Origin: a virus
Virus record (IMG/VR): IMGVR_UViG_2687453534_000001
Length of the DNA stretch: 64,000 bases
Strand: one strand, 5' to 3'
Under the pieces are notes generated by a model that saw nothing but the letters and a program-made list of their open reading frames with translations, was not told where the DNA came from and searched no databases. Positions 28,484 through 60,943 of the stretch are shown here, one piece after another. The position numbers and the translations under genes were made by a program. Positions within the stretch are counted from its first letter, which is position 1; each line of letters starts with the position of its first letter.

Positions 28484-30226
28484 TTGCCCTGGAAGCCAAC
28501 GGTTCCGGGTGAGCGTCCCACGCTCGGCTGGGCCGTACTCGACTGGATAACCGAGTACCTCCAAGTCGTTGACGGCCCCAGCCTGGGTGAGCCGCTGATC
28601 TTCACGCCGGAACAGGCGCATTTCGTCGCGCGGCTCTACGAAGTGGACCCGCTGTTCAAGCCTGGCACCGCGATCGTCGGCCGAGCGATGAACAACGGCC
28701 GGCTGATCCGCCGTGCGGTGCTCTCCCGGCCCAAGGGCTGGGGCAAGTCGCCGCTGGTGGCGGCGCTGTGCATCGTCGAGGCGATCGGCGATGTGGTCAT
28801 GGACGGCTGGGATGCTGATGGCCAACCCGTAGGCCGCCCCTGGGTCGATCTCGGCATCAAGCCGAAGGTCCAGATCATCGCCGTCTCAGAGGATCAGACC
28901 GCCAATACCTGGGACCCATGCCTGGACATGGTGCGCAGCAGCGATCGGCTGCTCGATGACTACGACGTTGACCCGATGGAAACGTTCATCACGGTTCCGC
29001 GCGGACGAATTGAGGCCGTCACGTCGGCGGGTGTCAGCCGTGAAGGTTTCCGACCCGTCTTCACCGCAATGGATCAGACCGAGAGCTGGACCGAGACCAA
29101 TGGCGGCCTGCGGCTCGCTGGGACCATCCGTCGCAACCTCGGCAAGGTCAACGGCTGCTCGGTCGAGACGCCGAACGCTTTCCTACCCGGTGAGAACACC
29201 GTCGCCGAGCGTTCGTGGAAGACGTATCAGGCGCAGCTTATTCGTGCGGAGCGCCCACAGGGTGAGGGCCGGGTGCCTGGCGGGCTCTACTACGATCACC
29301 GCGAAGCACCACCGGAAACCGACCCATCCGACTACGACTCGCTGCGCGAGGGGCTGCGCGTGTCGTACGGCGAGTCAGCCGATGACAACGGCGGATGGGT
29401 CAACCTTGATCGCATCATCCAAGAGTATTGGGATGACGACACCGATCCGCAGGACGCGCGCCGGTACTACCTGAACCAGATCACCCACGCGTCGGACCAG
29501 TGGATCAGTCAGATCGAGTGGAGCGCGATTCGCGTTGGTGCCGAGGACAAGCCAGACCCGAACCCCATCAAGCCGGGTGATTTCATCGCGGTTGGGTTCG
29601 ACGGCTCACGCGGCCGTCAGCGTGGAAAGGCTGACGCCACGGCGCTGATCGGGTGCCGCATCCATGACGGCCGACTGTTCACCATCGGCATTTGGCAGGC
29701 CGAGAAACACGAAAAGAACTGGGTACCTCCGGTTCACGAGGTGGATGCCGCGGTACGCAAGACGTTCGCAGACTTCCGGGTCATCGCGTTCAACGCCGAC
29801 CCAACCGGCTGGACTGAGCAAGTCGTGGCCTGGGAAAAGGACTTCGGGCGACGGCTCAAGGTCAAGTGCTCCGTCAAGAATCCGATGATGGCCTGGCCAA
29901 AGGGTAAGGGCATCAACGTAGTCGAGCACATCGAGATTTTCCGTCACGCCGTCGTCACGTCGGGTCAGGATGCTGGCGCGGAAGACTCCGTCATCACGAT
30001 CAGCCACAGCGGCGATCTCGCGCTGACACAGCACATCCTCAACGCACGAAAGCGCGCCGCCAGCCGCGGCTACCTGATCCACAAGGCATATCCAGAGTCC
30101 CCCAACAAAATTGACGCCGCGTACGCGGCGGTCATGGCGTACAAGGGGCGGCTCGACTGCTACGCCCAGGGTATCGGCGTACGCGTCAACTCATCTAGCC
30201 AGGGAAGGATGGTAGTGCTCGGATGA
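28484..30226 (+). CDS. terL: Terminase large subunit
   Basis: TTG start. ATPase motif PKGWGKSPLVAALCIVEA. 580 aa. Confidence 0.9.
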   Translation: MPWKPTVPGERPTLGWAVLDWITEYLQVVDGPSLGEPLIFTPEQAHFVARLYEVDPLFKPGTAIVGRAMNNGRLIRRAVLSRPKGWGKSPLVAALCIVEAIGDVVMDGWDADGQPVGRPWVDLGIKPKVQIIAVSEDQTANTWDPCLDMVRSSDRLLDDYDVDPMETFITVPRGRIEAVTSAGVSREGFRPVFTAMDQTESWTETNGGLRLAGTIRRNLGKVNGCSVETPNAFLPGENTVAERSWKTYQAQLIRAERPQGEGRVPGGLYYDHREAPPETDPSDYDSLREGLRVSYGESADDNGGWVNLDRIIQEYWDDDTDPQDARRYYLNQITHASDQWISQIEWSAIRVGAEDKPDPNPIKPGDFIAVGFDGSRGRQRGKADATALIGCRIHDGRLFTIGIWQAEKHEKNWVPPVHEVDAAVRKTFADFRVIAFNADPTGWTEQVVAWEKDFGRRLKVKCSVKNPMMAWPKGKGINVVEHIEIFRHAVVTSGQDAGAEDSVITISHSGDLALTQHILNARKRAASRGYLIHKAYPESPNKIDAAYAAVMAYKGRLDCYAQGIGVRVNSSSQGRMVVLG

Positions 30227-31713
30227 CCACTGCAATCGCGCTGCCGTCGCTTCAATTGTCGAAGGACGAACAAGCCGTACTGATGGATCTGACTACTCAG
30301 CTCCAGAGGCACCAGGGCGAGAACCTGATCAAAGAGCAGTACTACGAGGCCAAGCGCCGAATGGAAGACCTAAAAATCGCCATTCCGCCAACGCTTTCCA
30401 ACCTGATGTGCTGCGTAGGTTGGCCCGCCGTCGCCGTTGACAGTCTGGTAGAGCGGCTGAACTTTGAGGGCTGGTCATACGAGGGTGACGGCGAGGACCG
30501 CGACCCGCTGGGGCTCGATGAGATCTTCCTGGAGAACGATCTCGATGTCGAGTCGGATGTCAACCACACAGACGGCCTGATGTACGGAACCTCCTTTGTG
30601 GCTGTTTCTTCCGGTCTCGATGATGAGCCTGAAGTGGTCGTGACGGTGGAGTCGCCGCGGAACATGACCGCGATCTACGACCCTCGGACGCGTCGCGCCA
30701 CCTCGGCGTTCTTGCAGATCGTTGACCGTGAGCAGCGGGTGGTAGGTGGGCGGTTGATACTGCCCAACGAAATCATCGCCCTGGAATGCGTTCCCATGGA
30801 ACTCAGCGCGGCGGGCGTGGGCAATATGCGTGTGGTCGACCGCAACAAACACAATCTAGAGCGCGTGCTTGTGGCGCAGATGATCAACCGGCCACGGTCG
30901 GGTGCGCGCGGCCGCAATGGTCACTCTGAGATCACCGAAACCCTTATCTCGCATACACAGTCGGGTATGCGGACCCTGGCCAACATGGAGGTGGCCCGCG
31001 AGTACTTGGCATCCCCGCAGCGGGCGGTGCTCGGCGCGAAGGAATCGTTCTTTGTCGGCGAGGACGGTAAGCCAGTCCCGGCGTGGAAGTCCTACATCGG
31101 CCGCATGATCGCGCTGGAGCGCGACGAGTACGGCGAGATCCCGGACATCAAGGAATTCAAGGGCGCCAGCCTGGAATCGTTCTTCGGCCAGATGCGCACC
31201 CTCAGCCAGCTCGTATCCTCCGAAATCGCAGTCCCTGCAAATTATTTGGGCTTTGAGACAGACAACCCGCCATCTGCCGACGCGATCCGGTCGCTAGAGG
31301 GTCGCCACGTCAAACGCGCAGAGCAGCGCCAGAAGACATTTGGCCGCGGCTGGTCGGAGACCGCGCGGCTGTGCGTGATGGTGCGTGAAGGCAAGAAGTT
31401 CAACGAACTGCCCGGCGAGATTCGCAAGGTACGCCCCCAGTGGCGCGACGCCGCAACGCCGACCTTCGCGGCCACATCCGACGCGGTGACCAAGCTCATC
31501 GACAAGGGCGTTTACACGCCGACATCGCGTGTCACCCGCGACAAGCTGGGAATCAGTCGGGCTGATCAGCGACAGATGGAGATTGACGATAAGAAGACGA
31601 CGGTCACGAACCTCGTCGCGTCGGTCCGTCAGGGTGTCGAGAATGCGCGCCAGGACAGCCAGGTAGCGTCCCTGGCTGACCGTAGAGCGGCATCTGTTGG
31701 CCAGCCTGGTTGA
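30223..31713 (+). CDS. Portal protein
   Basis: 496 aa following TerL with ATGA coupling. Confidence 0.85.
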   Translation: MTTAIALPSLQLSKDEQAVLMDLTTQLQRHQGENLIKEQYYEAKRRMEDLKIAIPPTLSNLMCCVGWPAVAVDSLVERLNFEGWSYEGDGEDRDPLGLDEIFLENDLDVESDVNHTDGLMYGTSFVAVSSGLDDEPEVVVTVESPRNMTAIYDPRTRRATSAFLQIVDREQRVVGGRLILPNEIIALECVPMELSAAGVGNMRVVDRNKHNLERVLVAQMINRPRSGARGRNGHSEITETLISHTQSGMRTLANMEVAREYLASPQRAVLGAKESFFVGEDGKPVPAWKSYIGRMIALERDEYGEIPDIKEFKGASLESFFGQMRTLSQLVSSEIAVPANYLGFETDNPPSADAIRSLEGRHVKRAEQRQKTFGRGWSETARLCVMVREGKKFNELPGEIRKVRPQWRDAATPTFAATSDAVTKLIDKGVYTPTSRVTRDKLGISRADQRQMEIDDKKTTVTNLVASVRQGVENARQDSQVASLADRRAASVGQPG

Positions 31714-34700
31714 GCAGGCTCAAGCGCTCCAGGGCGTTCTGGGTGATCTTACTACGCTGTCCACCAAAGATCTTGTGGGCCTGTACAAGAAGCTCGAAAG
31801 CGACGGCGCGACGGGTGCCGACCTGCTGGACGCGTTCAAGGCCGTTTTCCCCGAGGTTGTACAGCCCTACGTCGAGGCCGCATCCCAGGTCGCGAATCAG
31901 TGGTACGGGGAGCTGGCACCTGATGAGCCCTACACACCAAAAGCGGTTGACGCGATTGACGCGGTGCCACAAGACCGCATGATGAACTCGCTGGAGTGGG
32001 CGTTTCGCGCAGCTGGCACCGCTCATCCGCTGACCCGGCTGACGGGTTCGGCACAGCGCATGGTGTTCGACGGTGCTCGCGCGACGATTCTGCGCAACGC
32101 CGACGCCGAGAAGGTCAAGTACTCGCGCCTGGCGTCGCCGGGTGCGTGCGAGTTCTGCCGAGTGATGGCCACGCGCGGAGCGGTATACCGCAGCGCTCAC
32201 GCGGCGCAGGCCGGCCATGACAACTGCCATTGCGTGCCGGCTGTCGCTCGCGGAAAGCTCAAGTTCCAGCGTCCGGGGTATTACCAGGACTGGGACGCCG
32301 AGTACATCGACACGGTCAAACAGCTCGAAGCTGAGCAGATCAAGCCGACGCTCAACGCGGTCCTGTCGAAAATGCGGGCCAACGAACTGGCCGCGTCAGA
32401 CAGCGGGCCAACACTGGTAGCGATGTCTACCAAGAAGTCACCGGCGCCAGCAGACATGGCCAAGTGGCTTGATGCCGAGAAACAGCATCAGTACGACGTG
32501 TCAGCGTGGTTGTCGGCCGAGAAGAGTCACACCAAGAAGTTGGCCAAGGCCGCGGCGCAGGCCAAATACGTGGCCAAGAAGAAGGCGACCGCCGAATGGC
32601 TGGCGGCCGAGCAGCAGCACCAGGCCGACGTGTCGGCGTGGCTGGTGGCCGAGAAGGACTTCACCAAGAAGAAAGCGAAGGCGGCGGCGCAGGCCAAGTA
32701 TGTGGCCAACAAGAAGGCCGCCGCCAATACCGTCGCGTGGCTCAAAGCCGAGCAGGTCTACAACGAACAGCAGACATTGCTTGAGATGGCAGCCGAGGCA
32801 GCCAAGGCATCCGCGAAGGTCGCCGCAATGGCCAACGCGGCGGCGAACGTCGATCTCAAGAAGGCGTCCAAGGCGCTGGCGGCGGCCAAGCACGCGGCGA
32901 AGAAGAAGGGCGACACCACCAAGTACGACGCACTGGCCAAGATGACACCCGCCGAGTATGCGGCATCCAAGGGTGGGGTGGCCGCGCCGAAAGCCACGAC
33001 AACGATCACCGCGAAGGTCACCACCCCGGAGACCGCGGCGACGGCGGGCATCGGCACCGTCAGCACCGCCACCAAGCCCAAGGCTGTCGTTGGTGCGCTG
33101 ACCGACTCACCGAGCGCTCTCGCCAGCACCGGCCAGGTTCTCGGTACTCACGGCGCCACCGTGTACACCGACTCCACGTCTCAGAAGTGGTTGGTCAAGG
33201 GTCCCAAGAACCCGAATGATCAATTCCTGGTCACGCTGGATGCGGCATCCGCTGAGCTGCAAGCGAAGTCGGGCTTGACTACACCGGCGATGTACATCAT
33301 GACGGTAGGCGGCAAGCGTCAGTCCGTTCAGTACATGTTCCCCGGCAGCAAGAGTGCCTTTCCTTCTGGGGTTGACCTGTCCACAATCAGTGAACCTGAT
33401 CTGTTGACGATCCAGAAGCATCACGCGCTCGACTGGCTGATGGGTAACCACGACAGTCATGCCGGGCAGTTCATCCGTGCTGGTAGCGGTGAGATTGTCG
33501 GAATCGACAAGGGCCAAGCTTTCAAGTATTTCACCGGCGACAAGCTGGACTGGAACTATCACCCCAACGTCAAGCACGGCACGCCAGAACCCATTTACAA
33601 CACGCTGTTTCGACAGTACGCCGAAGGCAAGCCCGGTAAGTTGCTCAATCCCTCGGGCGGCGAGCTAGCGGACTACATCCAAGGTCTACAGGCGATCCCA
33701 GACAAGGAGATCCGCAACCTATTCCGGCCCTACGCCGAGGGTGCGGTCAAACAGGGAAAGCTGTTGGTCGAGGCCAACGGTAGCACTCCGACGAACAATG
33801 TTGACGCGTTCCTAGAAGCCGTTGTTGCCAGAAAGAACGGTCTCGCAAACGATCTGAGCGCGTACTACGTCAAGGCTGTCGAAAAGCGCCTGACGAAAAC
33901 CAAAGTCAAGGGTGAGGTCACCACCGTGACGCCGGGGATGACCATCACGCAGGGTGACTTCCTACCACCAACTCCGATCCCGACTGGTCCGACGCCGGTC
34001 CTGTCTGGAGACGCGCTCAAGAAGGCTGGTAAGGCGCTCGCATCAGCCAAGTACCTGGCGAAGAAGAAGGGGGACACCGCCAACTTCGCTCAACTGTCGA
34101 AGATGACACCCGAGCAATACTGGCAGATGAAGAACGGCAATGGGCCTAGCCAACCTGTTGCGGCACAGTCTGTTACGAAGCCTGCGAAGGGGACAAAGTC
34201 CGCCAAGTTACTTGAATGGGAAAAAGAATTCCTGAAGACGTCCGGGTCGAGTGGGTTCTTCCAGCCTGTCAAGGCGTACGCGGTCGAGAAGGGTATCAAG
34301 CTCTCCGAGGCCATCCCCGAATTCGACAAAGAGTTCGGTATCGCGGCGCTCACCACTGATCAGTTGGCGAACCTGCTGGGCTACTACGACGTTGGGGTCC
34401 AGACCAAATGGCTCGGCAAGTACGGTGACGCACTCGGCGACGACATGGCCAAGAATGTGCTGGACAAGCTCAAAGCCCAGGGTAACTCCAAGATCAAAGA
34501 ACCTCCGAAACCTGTTGTCATTAAACAGGGGACGAAGTACACCCCCGAGCATGAGCAGCCCGCGGGCGAGCTGGCCAAGCTCGGCAAGACGGTTATCGCC
34601 AACTCCAAGGCCCCCGTCGGATCTGCCGACAACCCGCACGTTTTCGATGCCAGCGGCAAGGCGGTTGAGTGGCAGCAGTTCGGCTCGCTGATGTCGCCAC

Positions 34701-35254
34701 AGAATGCCTCGGCTTGGAAATCCGACCAGCACAGTGCCATCAAGTCGTACACCGGCAGCGGCTACAGCACAATGAACGCACACGCTCGCGAAGACAAAGT
34801 GCCGTCAGCCAAAACCAAGGCGCTCGATTCGGCGTTCTACGAGCACAATCCGTTTGAGGAGCACATCGTGCTCAGCCGCGGTACGCACGCTGTCGAGTTC
34901 AACGACGAGAACAGTCTGGGAATGAAGTTCAGTTTCGGCGCTGACATCGATGCGCTCAAGGTGCTGGAGGGTGAGACGTACATCTCCAAGTCCTTCCTGT
35001 CCACGTCGATCACCACCACGCCGGCATTCCACAACCCGGTTCGCGTGCTCTACAAGATGAAGCCAGGTCAGCGCGGCATCTTCGTCTCGGGTACACCAGA
35101 CGGAATGGATCAACTGACCTCCGTCGGAACCCACGAGCGCGAGGTTATCCTTCCCCGTAACCAGAAGATGAAGGTGCTGGAAGTGCGCAAGTCAACCGGG
35201 TCGTCACAGTTCAAGGTTGACGTGATCGTGGAGGTGGTGGATCAACCTGTCTAA
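31697..35254 (+). CDS. MuF-like head morphogenesis protein fused to Lys/Ala-rich repeats, an atypical kinase-like segment and a C-terminal R-S-E ADP-ribosyltransferase domain
   Basis: MuF region CEFCRVMATRGAVY...HDNCHC. Repeats about 32460-32780, 32860-32980 and 34020-34140. ART motifs Y-x-x-x-x-Y..N, SRG (Arg), FLSTS (STS) and HEREV (ExE) in the last 200 aa. Confidence 0.85.
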   Translation: MASLVEQAQALQGVLGDLTTLSTKDLVGLYKKLESDGATGADLLDAFKAVFPEVVQPYVEAASQVANQWYGELAPDEPYTPKAVDAIDAVPQDRMMNSLEWAFRAAGTAHPLTRLTGSAQRMVFDGARATILRNADAEKVKYSRLASPGACEFCRVMATRGAVYRSAHAAQAGHDNCHCVPAVARGKLKFQRPGYYQDWDAEYIDTVKQLEAEQIKPTLNAVLSKMRANELAASDSGPTLVAMSTKKSPAPADMAKWLDAEKQHQYDVSAWLSAEKSHTKKLAKAAAQAKYVAKKKATAEWLAAEQQHQADVSAWLVAEKDFTKKKAKAAAQAKYVANKKAAANTVAWLKAEQVYNEQQTLLEMAAEAAKASAKVAAMANAAANVDLKKASKALAAAKHAAKKKGDTTKYDALAKMTPAEYAASKGGVAAPKATTTITAKVTTPETAATAGIGTVSTATKPKAVVGALTDSPSALASTGQVLGTHGATVYTDSTSQKWLVKGPKNPNDQFLVTLDAASAELQAKSGLTTPAMYIMTVGGKRQSVQYMFPGSKSAFPSGVDLSTISEPDLLTIQKHHALDWLMGNHDSHAGQFIRAGSGEIVGIDKGQAFKYFTGDKLDWNYHPNVKHGTPEPIYNTLFRQYAEGKPGKLLNPSGGELADYIQGLQAIPDKEIRNLFRPYAEGAVKQGKLLVEANGSTPTNNVDAFLEAVVARKNGLANDLSAYYVKAVEKRLTKTKVKGEVTTVTPGMTITQGDFLPPTPIPTGPTPVLSGDALKKAGKALASAKYLAKKKGDTANFAQLSKMTPEQYWQMKNGNGPSQPVAAQSVTKPAKGTKSAKLLEWEKEFLKTSGSSGFFQPVKAYAVEKGIKLSEAIPEFDKEFGIAALTTDQLANLLGYYDVGVQTKWLGKYGDALGDDMAKNVLDKLKAQGNSKIKEPPKPVVIKQGTKYTPEHEQPAGELAKLGKTVIANSKAPVGSADNPHVFDASGKAVEWQQFGSLMSPQNASAWKSDQHSAIKSYTGSGYSTMNAHAREDKVPSAKTKALDSAFYEHNPFEEHIVLSRGTHAVEFNDENSLGMKFSFGADIDALKVLEGETYISKSFLSTSITTTPAFHNPVRVLYKMKPGQRGIFVSGTPDGMDQLTSVGTHEREVILPRNQKMKVLEVRKSTGSSQFKVDVIVEVVDQPV

Positions 35255-35273
35255 TCCCATCCCCACACGCTGG

Positions 35274-35642
35274 TTGCCCAACGGCGTATACGACATCATC
35301 AGCGCCGAGCTGGGCGCGTTCTATGACCAGCCGGATTATCCCGGCGCACGCACTGGCGCTGGGCGTTACGTCGACCTCTTTCAGGACCCGGAGCTGGAAC
35401 ATCCAGTCGGGCGACTCTGGACCAACGACAAAGACGCCTGCGGTCTGCTGCATGTGGCAGACGGCGATGAGGTGCTGTACGCCTACGTTGCGCTATCAAT
35501 TCGTCGCGAGCTACATCAGGGGAGTGCCGCGAAGAACACCTTTGAGCACATGTGCGCAGAGTGGAATGAAGACGGCACGCTTACGACGACAAATCTCGCG
35601 GATATTGAAGACTCCGCGATTGCACTCAACGCAGACCTGTAG
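35274..35642 (+). CDS. Hypothetical acidic protein immediately downstream of the MuF-ART gene (candidate immunity/inhibitor)
   Basis: TTG start. GC3 about 70%. Followed by a strong terminator. Confidence 0.5.
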   Translation: MPNGVYDIISAELGAFYDQPDYPGARTGAGRYVDLFQDPELEHPVGRLWTNDKDACGLLHVADGDEVLYAYVALSIRRELHQGSAAKNTFEHMCAEWNEDGTLTTTNLADIEDSAIALNADL

Positions 35643-35654
35643 AACCAAATAGTT

Positions 35655-35690
35655 AAGGCCCCTAACGGGATTTCGTTAGGGGCCTTTTGC
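35655..35690. terminator. Bidirectional rho-independent terminator
   Basis: AAGGCCCCTAAC-gggatttc-GTTAGGGGCCTT followed by TTT. Confidence 0.7.
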
Positions 35691-35698
35691 GTGCCTGG

Positions 35699-35881
35699 TT
35701 ACGGATGAATTCCTTGCTCCCAGCATAGATAGAACTGGGCAACGGTCTCCGCCCATTCGACGCGGCGTTTCACACGTTTCGCGTACCACTTCGCGAACTG
35801 CTCGCCCATTTCGGCATCAACGCACGCGTTGTACCGCACCCATTCCAGCGCCTCTCGGTAGTCCTCATCCGTGGTCTTCAT
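35699..35881 (-). CDS. Small hypothetical protein (60 aa)
   Basis: MKTTDEDYREALEW... The rest of the 245-aa track ORF is antisense to the scaffold gene. Confidence 0.4.
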   Translation of the reverse strand: MKTTDEDYREALEWVRYNACVDAEMGEQFAKWYAKRVKRRVEWAETVAQFYLCWEQGIHP

Positions 35882-35935
35882 GGTAGAGCACTCTACCACC
35901 GAATTGGTAGAGACGTATACCACCCTCACCGCACA
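35882..35935. promoter_or_regulatory. GGTAGAG palindrome/repeat (GGTAGAGcaCTCTACC, then a second GGTAGAG); candidate operator/promoter
   Basis: The same motif family recurs at 61161-61226. Confidence 0.4.
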
Positions 35936-36009
35936 AATCTTCCGCTCACACCCGAGCGGATCGCCCGAAACGGGCGCCCCCTCTATGCGAAACGCAGGAG
36001 AGATCTCAC

Positions 36010-36630
36010 ATGTCAGAAGAAGTCGGAACCCCCACGCCCAACTCGATGCCCGGAGCGGCCGAGACCGCGGCTGGTCAGCAGCCAGACGCGACGGGGGAGA
36101 GCATCGACGAGCTGGAAACTTCGTACGACGAACAGCTCGCGACGCTGGAGGGCGAACGCGACCAGTGGCGCGACCAGGCTCGTAAGAACGAGGCTCGCGC
36201 AAAGACAAACGCGGCCAAGGCGAAGGAGCACGATCAGCACTTCGCCGAGTACAAGGCCGCGTTCGATCGCGAACAGCAGAAGAAGGAAAGCGAGAAGACA
36301 CCTGATCAGCGCGTGCTAGATCAGGCAGCTCAGGATCGGGCTCGCGCCGAGAAGGCCGAGGCTGACAAGGCTGAGGCAGATGCTCGCCTTCTGAGATACC
36401 AACTGGCCGAAGGCATTCCACCGTTTGCGCTGCCACTGATCACGGCGACTTCTGAGGAAGAGATCACTGCCGAGGTCGAGGACCTAAAGGTCAAGCTCGC
36501 TGCCTACGTCACTGAGGTGACCAATAGCCAGTCCCGCAGGCCAGCTCCCGATCCGGCGTTTGGGCGCGGTGGTGCCGCTGGAGCAACTCCAGAAGAGCAA
36601 TTCGCCGCAGCGCTCAGAGGCGTTATTTAG
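36010..36630 (+). CDS. Scaffolding protein
   Basis: GGAGAG RBS. Acidic coiled-coil protein preceding the major capsid gene. Confidence 0.7.
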   Translation: MSEEVGTPTPNSMPGAAETAAGQQPDATGESIDELETSYDEQLATLEGERDQWRDQARKNEARAKTNAAKAKEHDQHFAEYKAAFDREQQKKESEKTPDQRVLDQAAQDRARAEKAEADKAEADARLLRYQLAEGIPPFALPLITATSEEEITAEVEDLKVKLAAYVTEVTNSQSRRPAPDPAFGRGGAAGATPEEQFAAALRGVI

Positions 36631-59498: not shown

Positions 59499-59933
59499 CT
59501 ACTGCCTGGTATCCAGTTCGGCTATGATGTCGGAGATTAGGCGACTTCCCGCCTCGATTCGATCGTGGACGCAGACAGCTCCTACACACGGGGGACCGTT
59601 GAATACCCTTTCAATCAGCCCTCCCAGTCGTGAGTCGCCAGACGCCATGTTGCCACCGAACATCGTCCACCGGCGCATCTGGAACGCCGAGAGCGGCACA
59701 AAATGCGGCAGCGCTCCGGGTAGATTTGGTCCGACAAGCACCACGGCGTTATCGCTCGTAGACTCCACAACCCGTGATCCCTCCGGTGGTGGAATCAGCT
59801 CACCGTTGAGGTCGCTCGCGATACCGACCAGTACCAGACGAGAATGCCGTGCGCTAATGCCATTCAGGGTGCAGTCAGGAAAGTCCGCGGGTCGCAAGAC
59901 CGTTAGTTCTAATCCCATCATTGTGTCAGTCAT
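59499..59933 (-). CDS. Unknown 144-aa protein translationally coupled to the ADP-ribosylglycohydrolase
   Basis: Start ATG at 59933-59931 overlaps the ARH stop (TGATG). The track ORF has a 26-aa N-terminal extension. Confidence 0.55.
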   Translation of the reverse strand: MTDTMMGLELTVLRPADFPDCTLNGISARHSRLVLVGIASDLNGELIPPPEGSRVVESTSDNAVVLVGPNLPGALPHFVPLSAFQMRRWTMFGGNMASGDSRLGGLIERVFNGPPCVGAVCVHDRIEAGSRLISDIIAELDTRQ

Positions 59934-60943
59934 CAGAACTCGTATCCTTCCGCTTCTGAAATCTCTTTCTGGTAGCGCGTTTCCAGCCGATCGAACCACT
60001 CGGCAGGCCATGGGTCGTCATACATCGCGCCGAGGATTGATCCCGCGACCGCCGCGATCGAGTCGCTGTCACCGCTCGTGACCGTCGCGCGGCGCAGCGC
60101 GGCTATCGGGTCATTGGGAAACAGATCGATGCAGAACAGCGCGCACGCCAGCGCATCGTGAGCGCGCCAGCCGGGGCCTGCGTGCTCACACGGATCGAGA
60201 TCCCACGGATCAGCACCAGCATCACGCAACTGGCGAAGTGCGATATCCGCGGTCAGCAGACGGTCCTGGACGAAGAGCAGACCGCGCGTCATGAACCGAC
60301 GCACGCCGACCTCAGCGACGACAGGGTGACCGTCGATCCAACGGTCAACATCCGTAAGTAGAGACGAATCATGATGTAGCCCAGTGCTTGCCAGATAGAT
60401 CGCCTCTTCGAGCAGCCGCCCTGGGTAGATGCTTCGCGCTTTGCGGATGATCGCTGCGGTTAAGAGCGACGCGGCGATGCCTGTCGCGCGTCCGTGGGTG
60501 GATGCTGCTTGCCACGCGGCGACCCCCTGCCAGCTGCGATCTTTGGTTACGAAAGCTGCGGGACTGACGCGCATTACCGTGCCGCATCCATCCGAGTTCA
60601 AAACGGTGGCCTTGGGCCAGGGGAAGTCGTTCTTCAACGCCCCGATAGCGCGCATGCACGTGTTGCCCGGTGCGCGGTTGTTGTCCGGGTCATCGAACCA
60701 CTTGATCCACTGATCGATGATCTTGACGCCGACCTCATCATCGGTCACATCTTTTGTGTCGTGGAGACCTCGCGCGAGCGCGAGCGTCATCTGAGTGTCG
60801 TCGCTGATGATCAGCTTCTCGGGCAGCTCTGGGCCCATTAGCCCGTTTTCGGTGAGCTGAGCGTACGACCTGAACTCATTGCGGTAGCCCCACGCATCGC
60901 CATAGGCGACACCACGGAGCACGTTGGACCATTTACTAGGCAT
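59933..60943 (-). CDS. ADP-ribosylglycohydrolase (DraG/ARH family)
   Basis: GAGGAA RBS. N-terminal GVAYGDAWGYRNEF and C-terminal GDSDSIAAVAGSILGA metal-binding motifs. Confidence 0.85.
   Translation of the reverse strand: MPSKWSNVLRGVAYGDAWGYRNEFRSYAQLTENGLMGPELPEKLIISDDTQMTLALARGLHDTKDVTDDEVGVKIIDQWIKWFDDPDNNRAPGNTCMRAIGALKNDFPWPKATVLNSDGCGTVMRVSPAAFVTKDRSWQGVAAWQAASTHGRATGIAASLLTAAIIRKARSIYPGRLLEEAIYLASTGLHHDSSLLTDVDRWIDGHPVVAEVGVRRFMTRGLLFVQDRLLTADIALRQLRDAGADPWDLDPCEHAGPGWRAHDALACALFCIDLFPNDPIAALRRATVTSGDSDSIAAVAGSILGAMYDDPWPAEWFDRLETRYQKEISEAEGYEF

Follow-up and report, generated by a model that had tools for sequence, protein, structure and literature searches.

The 64,000-nucleotide (nt) stretch of DNA analyzed here (referred to as the window; IMG/VR record IMGVR_UViG_2687453534_000001) contained gp54, a gene in the head module of a temperate mycobacteriophage, whose product is probably a virion-internal polyvalent protein that would be packaged in the capsid and co-injected as a bifunctional effector, by analogy with the MuF-toxin/polyvalent-protein class. 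The gene (31697..35254, + strand; 3,558 nt, TTG start) was predicted to encode 1185 amino acids (aa; 127 kDa, isoelectric point (pI) 9.2), in which a MuF4/VG15 head domain is followed by Lys/Ala-rich repeats, a kinase-like domain, a small helical domain (domain X), and a C-terminal ADP-ribosyltransferase (ART). The protein is interpreted as an injected effector because of the identities of its domains, the constrained catalytic residues, its position in the head module, the recurrent fusion to MuF or portal domains, the conserved pairing of kinase and ART, and its candidate partners. The MuF-ART reading of gp54 is not new, as GenBank already annotates the gene in this way and the protein falls within published classes. 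What is new is the kinase domain, together with the conserved kinase-ART tandem, the partner gp55, and the co-occurrence of the ART with an ADP-ribosylglycohydrolase (ARH); none of these appears in the annotation or, as far as was found, in the cited papers.

The window matched Mycobacterium phage McProf (BK061309.1), a prophage of Mycobacterium chelonae ATCC 35752, with 100% identity by megablast (window coordinate = record coordinate + 942), and McProf gp54, labelled [quoted passage not shown] in GenBank, was 100% identical to the open reading frame (ORF) in the window. McProf carried integrase, repressor, Cro, and excise genes, as expected for a temperate phage. The initial annotation, made from the letters of the window, described a 1185-aa ORF after the portal gene, and this was borne out; gp54 was read as a single ORF that overlapped the last 17 nt of the 496-aa portal ORF (gp53; 30223..31713, + strand) directly upstream. 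The gene order was terminase small subunit, terminase large subunit, portal gp53, gp54, gp55 (hypothetical), gp56 (small, reverse strand), scaffold, and major capsid. Orthologs of gp54 with the same architecture and 68-93% identity were present in four other cluster MabR prophages (M. abscessus). The same annotation stated that MuF-ART fusions are annotated in actinophages and functionally uncharacterized, which agrees with the GenBank label of gp54 itself and with the literature searched, where neither a functional study of a MuF-ART type protein nor a characterized capsid-borne kinase of actinophages was found; a discussion of gp54 was likewise not found in the McProf and MabR papers. Both end domains of the proposed fusion were supported, although the fusion was incomplete as described, since the second predicted enzyme, the kinase, had been missed. 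The approximately 750 residues between the VG15 and ART domains consisted of the kinase-like domain, two repeat systems, and the small helical domain. Full-length gp54 had no match among PDB sequences, and gp54, gp55, and gp86 (the ARH gene) had no match in PADLOC.

The C-terminus of gp54 was confirmed, on sequence grounds, as a C2/C3/VIP2-type mono-ART with an intact R-S-ExE site. The ART unit (aa 961-1185; 34577..35251, + strand), which has a conserved VGSxxNPHxF lead-in, was assigned by Pfam, by profile comparison with the PDB, by motif alignment, and by Foldseek. The Pfam family ADPrib_exo_Tox (PF03496) matched aa 1007-1176 with an E-value of 4.7e-16 (59.2 bits against a cut-off of 23.4), and PHROGs agreed with Pfam on the gp54 domains, the best PHROG for the ART being 3895 (“exoenzyme toxin”). 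The three R-S-E motifs that had been proposed within the last 200 aa were all found in the right order, namely R1061 (34877-34879) within SRG at aa 1060, S1102-T-S1104 (35000-35008) within FLSTS at aa 1100, and E1147-R-E1149 (35135-35143) within HEREV at aa 1146; the spacings of 41 aa from R to STS and 45 aa from STS to ExE were slightly shorter than the ~50 and ~55 aa that had been given. The upstream Y-x-x-x-x-Y..N segment was found as well, as the helix Y1018-x4-Y1023..N1027 (YTGSGYSTMN, aa 1018-1027). Single-sequence phmmer searches of the PDB with the ART yielded weak matches (E-values of 0.01-0.2) to Lmo0066, C2-I, and SpvB, and in these alignments R1061, S1102-T-S, E1147-x-E1149, and the α3 Y-x4-Y..N helix fell on their counterparts. 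A tblastn search with the ART matched 81 phage records, many of which were annotated as ADP-ribosyltransferase or VIP2-like ADP-ribosyltransferase toxin. Residues R and S, as well as both E, were invariant in an alignment of 12 phage homologs, and the T-S of STS was nearly so. The profile of these 12 homologs matched more than 40 solved family members in the PDB, with Lmo0066 as the best (5.6e-19), C3cer, Vip2, CDTa, iota-Ia, C2-I, C3bot, Certhrax, and SpvB at 1e-14 to 1e-7, and Tre1 weakly.

The constraint on the catalytic site was also evident among 89 ART domains on kinase-family proteins, in which the R was kept in 84, the S in 88, the first E of ExE in 88, and the second E in all 89; the first residue of the ADP-ribosylating toxin turn-turn (ARTT) motif was never Q. 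C3 enzymes carry QxE and are Asn-specific, and iota, C2, and Vip2 carry ExE and are Arg-specific. The gp54 ART has ExE rather than QxE and is therefore predicted to modify arginine. The ART domain alone had no match at an E-value of 1e-3 in an index of 5.8 billion proteins, and the 12-homolog profile recovered only six usable homologs from it, resulting in a shallow alignment of seq­uences (7 in total) for an AlphaFold model of aa 831-1185. A Foldseek search with this low-confidence model, which bears on whether the ART fold proposed initially is predicted at all, returned only ARTs of the C3, CDTa, C2-I, Certhrax, or Plx2A types among its top 50 matches (E-value ~1e-9, template modelling (TM) score to target ~0.65), a result that did not refute this fold and that is supportive, and not independent of the sequence evidence. 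The gp54 ART thus belongs by alignment to the same family (PF03496) as C2-I, iota-Ia, CDTa, Vip2, C3, and Lmo0066, with R, STS, ExE, and the α3 helix aligned. In contrast to C2-I, iota, CDTa, Vip2, and C3, it has no B-component or adaptor domain, and delivery would be by the capsid; its target is presumed to be bacterial, whereas the C2-I/iota/C3 group acts on eukaryotic actin or Rho. The comparison with T4 Alt that had been drawn initially would hold for the packaged-effector model and not for sequence membership, as the only link of gp54 to the T4 Alt/ModA/ModB group was a partial match to PHROG 802 (E-value of 0.0027, aa 996-1063).

The second predicted enzyme was an atypical protein-kinase-like domain (aa ~470-735; 33104..33901, + strand), which was recognized by structure comparison only, as residues ~465-735 had no significant sequence match in Pfam, PHROG, NCBIfam, or the PDB. 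A total of 30 homologs of this region were present in the protein index, with 40-46% identity and mostly as “hypothetical proteins” of 320-460 aa, and the AlphaFold model from their alignment was of high confidence (predicted local distance difference test (pLDDT) 91.9, predicted TM score 0.91). The model showed a bilobal kinase-like fold with a helical C-lobe, and the nearest folds were PI4K-IIα (the best structural match), CtkA, and HipA/HipT. In a sub-threshold profile alignment to HipT, WLVK501 aligned with the β3 lysine and LDWLMGNHD586SHAGQ591F with the catalytic loop, and GID604KGQ took the DFG position; the predicted catalytic residues are therefore K501 (33197-33199) and D586 (33452-33454), the latter together with Q591, and D604 (33506-33508) is the predicted metal-binding residue. 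Among 214 instances of the domain, taken from representatives that were at most 50% identical, K501 was kept in 210, D586 in 214, N/Q591 in 209, and D604 in 213, as were D579 (213), W580 (214), K605 (213), and Q607 (204). This conserved residue set is the signature of an active phosphotransferase, and kinase activity is accordingly a prediction from sequence. Catalytically dead or purely structural kinase and ART domains are essentially excluded by the residue conservation in the 214 kinase and 89 ART domains.

Like HipA/HipT, Helicobacter pylori CtkA, and the type II phosphatidylinositol (PI) 4-kinases, the gp54 domain has a β3 Lys, a D-x-H-x-x-N/Q loop, and a metal-binding Asp; it differs from them in its low identity (13-16%), in the lack of a HipA N-terminal domain and of a HipB/HipS partner, and in its location within a phage structural protein. 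Relatives of the domain scored 18-33 bits against the HipA_C cut-off of 30.5 (one was just above it) and 17.7 bits against the PI3_PI4_kinase cut-off of 27.1, both borderline. As far as profile comparison can tell, the family is related to, and separate from, HipA_C and PI3_PI4_kinase, and has no Pfam model.

The kinase family was widespread. When 1.84 billion cluster representatives were searched exhaustively with a profile, 1,804 proteins were recovered at E-values of at most 1e-3, including 646 at 1e-30 or below; the best 150 were mostly 1,000-6,354 aa in length, and some contained two kinase copies. A gp54-type ART was present in 80/146 (55%) of the new kinase-family representatives, nearly always C-terminal to the kinase and at the end of the protein. 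Pfam searches of sampled relatives revealed VG15 plus ART (the same architecture as gp54), double ARTs, lytic transglycosylases, ParB_N, and borderline HipA_C. IMG/VR contained 274 kinase relatives; in the 80 loci analyzed, the kinase was almost always located within ORFs of 900-2,100 aa, and a C-terminal ART was encoded in the same ORF in 29 of the 36 closest loci. The order terL-portal-[VG15-kinase-ART], with an ORF of only ~965 aa, was found in several IMG/VR loci, and the same order occurred in unrelated actinobacterial prophages (loci L036, L038, L040, L106, and L109). More distant proteins of 1,529-1,749 aa (loci L086, L087, L054, L072, and L033) combined an N-terminal bona fide Phage_Mu_F domain with the kinase and sometimes with NUDIX, Rho_N, or ART; at least some of these were from non-actinobacterial phages, and locus L037 and several metagenomic proteins carried two kinase copies. 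Bacterial genomes contained 145 kinase relatives in prophage-like contexts, the closest in Actinomycetota and others in Desulfobacterota, Gammaproteobacteria, Chloroflexota, Planctomycetota, Verrucomicrobiota, Acidobacteriota, and further phyla. On the other hand, only 12 records of the curated phage collection harbored the kinase, including the five MabR prophages; it was located upstream of the ART inside a 1,340-aa “ADP-ribosyltransferase” in Onyinye, Aikoy, and Leopard, and at the N-terminus of a 2,030-aa protein in Phrappuccino and Settecandela. Related folds in BFVD came from phage proteins whose labels were portal, ADP-ribosyltransferase, Nudix, 2'-5' RNA ligase, and “PI3K/PI4K catalytic domain-containing”. 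Judged from these architectures, the kinase is a common cargo domain, as yet without a model, of giant phage proteins anchored by MuF or portal domains, and kinase-then-ART is a recurrent pair.

A different account is that the ART modifies nucleic acid or a small molecule, as do pierisin and ScARP (guanine) and CmdT (mRNA), and that the kinase is of a lipid or small-molecule type, as the PI4K-IIα match suggests. Phosphatidylinositol is present in mycobacteria, and R-S-E ARTs with non-protein targets exist (PMC11618068). The ExE motif in 88-89 of the 89 homologs is nevertheless the Arg-specific signature of C2, iota, and Vip2, and the associated hydrolase, gp86, is nearest to the Arg-ADP-ribose hydrolases DraG and Tri1. 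Furthermore, the kinase family occurs in Desulfobacterota, Gammaproteobacteria, Chloroflexota, Planctomycetota, and other groups that do not share phosphatidylinositol, and by sequence it leans to HipA_C over PI3/4K. This account is the least probable of those considered, and a phosphatidylinositol kinase confined to PI-containing actinobacteria was downgraded on the same two grounds.

It could also be argued that the two enzymes act late inside the producing cell, where they might, for example, modify proteins of the phage or host as particles assemble or block defence systems, that they are not delivered, and that the MuF fusion is a structural or expression convenience. The location of gp54 in the late structural operon would fit such a role, as would the Onyinye homolog, which is encoded ahead of the terminase and shows no detectable MuF domain, and the stand-alone kinase homologs, which were located among tail genes in phage tail/structural modules. 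However, the repeated fusion of the kinase to MuF, VG15, or portal across phyla is hard to explain without incorporation into the virion, and T4 Alt and SPP1 gp7 provide precedents for packaging (PMC5512222). Action confined to the producing cell is thus considered very unlikely.

Packaging of gp54 as an injected effector would depend on its N-terminus, which contained a MuF4/VG15-type head-morphogenesis (portal-associated minor capsid) domain at aa 7-203 (31715..32305, + strand; PF25310, 5.7e-37). A MuF/SPP1-gp7-type N-terminus that includes HDNCHC had been proposed at the outset, and the evidence agrees with it. A Zn-type motif, C151-x2-C154 ... H174-x2-C177-x-C179 (32147-32233), was read from CEFCRV at aa 151 and HDNCHC at aa 174. 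A tblastn search with aa 1-240 matched 714 actinophage records, mostly portal-adjacent and labelled MuF-like minor capsid protein, some bearing the legacy label “capsid/head maturation protease”. One match was gp4 of mycobacteriophage Angel (2e-18), the seed of the MuF4 family, which is tied to PF04233 and PF06152 by comparison of hidden Markov models (Jamet et al., 2017, PMC5576092). A direct Pfam search of gp54 did not detect PF04233, and hhalign of VG15-type against bona fide Phage_Mu_F N-termini gave a probability of 74% (2.7e-5) over the C-x2-C ... H-x-N-C-x-C region only. The N-terminus is therefore supported as a member of the MuF superfamily by similarity, with modest direct statistics. 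The PHROG label “head maturation protease” on this domain looks like a propagated legacy mislabel. No capsid maturation protease was annotated between portal and scaffold (30223-36630), and no prohead protease was annotated in McProf; proteolytic release of the gp54 domains was accordingly downgraded, with cleavage neither supported nor excluded.

SPP1 gp7/MuF and T4 Alt have been reviewed as precedents for packaging (PMC5512222, PMC5576092, PMC9503650), and the packaged-effector model (an injected MuF polymorphic toxin or Alt-like protein) has been published as a hypothesis for MuF-ART and polyvalent proteins (PMC5576092, PMC5512222, PMC9503650, PMC7302621). By analogy, the MuF domain would recruit a few copies of gp54 into the procapsid at the portal, and gp54 would exit the head together with the phage DNA. 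In the newly infected cell, it would phosphorylate and Arg-ADP-ribosylate host proteins, and host functions would be re-programmed or arrested in the first minutes. More speculatively, gp86 may strip the Arg-ADP-ribose marks when lysogeny is set up, or shield lysogens from the ART of related phages, and gp55 may, within the producing cell, neutralize or chaperone one or the other enzyme.

The MuF polymorphic toxins of temperate phages (Jamet et al., 2017, PMC5576092) and the MuF-VIP2 fusions of actinophages (Jacobs-Sera et al., 2020, PMC7302621) share with gp54 a MuF-type N-terminus, a gene position directly after the portal, a long C-terminal extension that ends in a toxin-type ART, a small ORF downstream, and a prophage location. 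The extension that defines a MuF toxin is at least 100 aa, and that of gp54 was ~980 aa and ended in an ART; ARTs made up 14% of the MuF toxins surveyed (PMC5576092). Unlike these toxins, which carry one enzyme, gp54 has two predicted enzymes. The kinase-like domain is missing from their list of cargo, where Ct_MAD, from the C-terminal region of COG2369, is a different domain, and a possible ARH antidote is located 25 kilobases (kb) away from gp54, instead of or besides a neighboring immunity gene. Polyvalent proteins (Iyer et al., 2017, PMC5512222; 2022, PMC9503650) are, like gp54, large virion-associated chains of several effector domains. They are defined by at least two unrelated effector domains in a virion or transfer context, which corresponds to the kinase-like domain and the ART behind MuF. 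Among them, ART is the commonest modifying enzyme, a MuF fusion is a sign of head packaging, and kinase domains have been reported (PMC5512222, PMC9503650). The kinase of Iyer et al. (2017) has no C-terminal lobe and is found mainly in prophages of Verrucomicrobia-Chlamydia and Bacteroidetes (PMC5512222), whereas that of gp54 has a helical C-lobe and is HipA/CtkA/PI4K-II-like; the two are set apart by description only. The kinase-ART tandem and the gp55 and ARH partners are absent from these descriptions of polyvalent proteins. If delivered, gp54 would join in one injected polypeptide the activities of T4 Alt, a head-packaged ART, and T7 Gp0.7, an early protein kinase that phosphorylates host transcription and translation proteins and whose kinase fold class differs from that of gp54. 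T4 Alt is packaged by a capsid-targeting sequence with processing by the prohead protease, whereas gp54 would use MuF anchoring.

Two genes of McProf were candidate partners of gp54. The first, gp55 (35274..35642, + strand), starts 20 nt downstream of gp54 and encodes a conserved small protein of 122 aa, a candidate immunity protein or chaperone, which matches the pattern of a small ORF (<150 aa) after a MuF toxin (Jamet et al., 2017). In all five MabR prophages, the kinase-ART gene was directly followed by a gp55 homolog, as was the case in Onyinye (gp17; BLASTP E-value of 3e-13) and in 11 IMG/VR loci that represent at least three lineages. A gp55 profile yielded nothing credible in the PDB, Pfam, or PADLOC. 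The homolog in prophiFSQJ01-1 (BK061312) was intact (L005, 5177-5545) but misannotated, as the record shows in its place two small ORFs unrelated to each other, of which one is in the wrong frame and the other lacks part of its N-terminus; a disruption of gp55 in this prophage, considered as a case of toxin-immunity co-variation, was therefore rejected.

The second candidate, gp86 (59933..60943, − strand), encodes an ARH (PF03747, 6e-49) of the DraG/Tri1 type, with DraG (6e-9) and Tri1 (3e-6) as its best PDB matches; the NCBIfam DraG and Tri1 models matched below their cut-offs. DraG and Tri1 are Arg-ADP-ribose hydrolases. The gene was located between the lysis cassette and attR, in an attR-proximal block common to all MabR genomes that is described as typically lysogeny-expressed in the McProf papers. 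A gp86-type ARH was present in only 28 of 50,697 phage records, and these included all 13 best-covered ART matches (five MabR prophages, two GMA2 records, Morgana, Aleemily, Cafasso, ObLaDi, and two Sixama records), against ~0.05 expected by chance, the overlap representing about four independent lineages. The nearest solved relative of the gp54 ART, PDB 8za7, was deposited as an “ART-ARH type toxin effector-immunity protein pair”. In Tre1-Tri1 (Serratia; PDB 6dre/6drh), the Lmo0066 pair (Listeria; 8za7), and DraT-DraG, an Arg-type ART and a DraG-family hydrolase are encoded on one element, and McProf would be comparable in carrying a predicted Arg-type ART and gp86. These data make gp86 a candidate for erasing the marks of the gp54 ART or for conferring immunity to it. 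In Phrappuccino, an ARH was encoded four genes from the kinase protein.

The presence of these partners is also compatible with a MuF polymorphic toxin that serves as a bacterial weapon and not for host take-over, in which particles from a few induced lysogens would kill or arrest non-lysogenic competitors and gp55 and/or gp86 would protect kin. The architecture, the gene position, the downstream ORF of <150 aa, and the temperate element are as in the MuF toxins of Jamet et al. (2017), the nearest solved ART is an effector used between bacteria, with an ARH as its immunity protein, and gp86 lies in the block that the McProf papers class as typically expressed in lysogeny. A separate polymorphic toxin cassette of the ESX type is likewise present in McProf, which thus invests in competition (PMC9434293). 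Against this, Gordonia phages of 86-115 kb carry close homologs of the ART along with an ARH, and lytic Microbacterium phages carry MuF-VIP2 fusions (PMC7302621), settings in which protection of kin is implausible, and lysogens are already guarded from productive superinfection by repressor immunity. A bacterial weapon is therefore regarded as unlikely. In an elaboration of the injected-effector reading, kinase and ART together would be a conserved, coupled two-enzyme warhead delivered with the DNA and, in temperate actinophages, one half of a reversible writer-eraser switch. Phosphorylation and Arg-ADP-ribosylation would shut down host targets, and gp86, possibly with gp55, would later erase or block the marks, so that the cell recovers if lysogeny is chosen and lysogens are immune to the warhead of related phages; this, too, is a doubtful proposal. 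If true, a previously unrecognized and widespread kinase family of ~1,800 sequence clusters, which has no Pfam model, would be used as capsid cargo.

Several observations weigh against gp54 as an injected effector with an ARH partner. Only lysogenic gene expression has so far been seen for McProf, and particles are not reported (PMC8191103). The AlphaFold model of the ART region had a pLDDT of 54, and the gp54 kinase did not match HipA_C (PF07804) or PI3_PI4_kinase (PF00454) even at an E-value of 1; since its relatives were borderline, protein, lipid, and small-molecule substrates are all candidates. The gene arrangement in Onyinye, in which the kinase-ART gene (gp16) precedes the terminase, does not point to head packaging. 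As for the partner, gp86 is 25 kb from gp54, on the opposite strand, and in a different expression module, unlike the genes of the known ART-ARH pairs, and its pairing with the ART is a statistical co-occurrence in about four lineages. Co-variation of ART and ARH was absent among the MabR prophages, as illustrated by FSIL01-1, in which the ART was 98.6% and the ARH 64% identical to those of McProf. An ARH was absent at an E-value of 1e-5 from the Onyinye-type kinase-ART phages, and Phrappuccino, which was considered as a carrier of kinase, ARH, and ART, had no gp54-type ART in the ~70 kb of genome examined.

As a probable injected effector, gp54 is of interest because it belongs to a cluster of clinically relevant M. 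abscessus/M. chelonae prophages that has been linked to antibiotic tolerance. The host targets of its enzymes would reveal vulnerable nodes in mycobacterial physiology, and relatives such as Onyinye, whose listed host is M. smegmatis, provide a tractable system.

The remaining parts of gp54 were repeats, linkers, and domain X. A basic, Lys/Ala-rich helical region (aa 245-465; 32429..33091, + strand; 28.5% Ala, 16.7% Lys, pI 9.8) contained a 132-nt (44-aa) tandem repeat (32459-32722). This region may contact DNA or act as a spacer; it resembles histone-like basic repeats, and DNA binding is a guess. A linker motif, L, was present in two copies on the + strand, copy 1 (LKKASKALAAAKHAAKKKGDTTKYDALAKMTP; 32855..32951), which is a 97-nt direct repeat (D2), and copy 2 (34016..34112), with 78% DNA identity to copy 1, and encodes LKKA.KALA.AK..AKKKGDT..[YF]..L.KMTP. 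The copies were 1,161 nt (387 codons) apart, in frame, and bracketed the kinase module; recombination between them would cleanly delete the kinase, which suggests a cassette-like modularity of this segment. The motif recurred 2-3 times as an inter-domain spacer in related MuF-kinase-ART proteins. Neither linker L nor the Lys/Ala repeats matched Pfam, and a HeH/Rho_N-like DNA-binding role for them is a guess, made with a relative in mind that has Rho_N at the equivalent position. Domain X (aa 836-935; 34202..34501, + strand) is small, acidic, and all-helical, being helical in the low-confidence model; it was conserved only in VG15-kinase-ART relatives and matched no known family.

Two further observations concern neighboring or related genes. 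In Phrappuccino (NC_054727), the ARH (gp191), a 1,151-aa virion structural protein (gp194), and the 2,030-aa kinase protein (gp195) formed a cluster, with which a DarB-like antirestriction protein (gp2) at the other end of the genome was grouped; this set looks like head-internal injected proteins. In the window, gp56 (35699-35839, − strand) is a 46-aa ORF between gp55 and the scaffold gene with no family match, and it is reported to be expressed weakly in the lysogen (PMC8191103).

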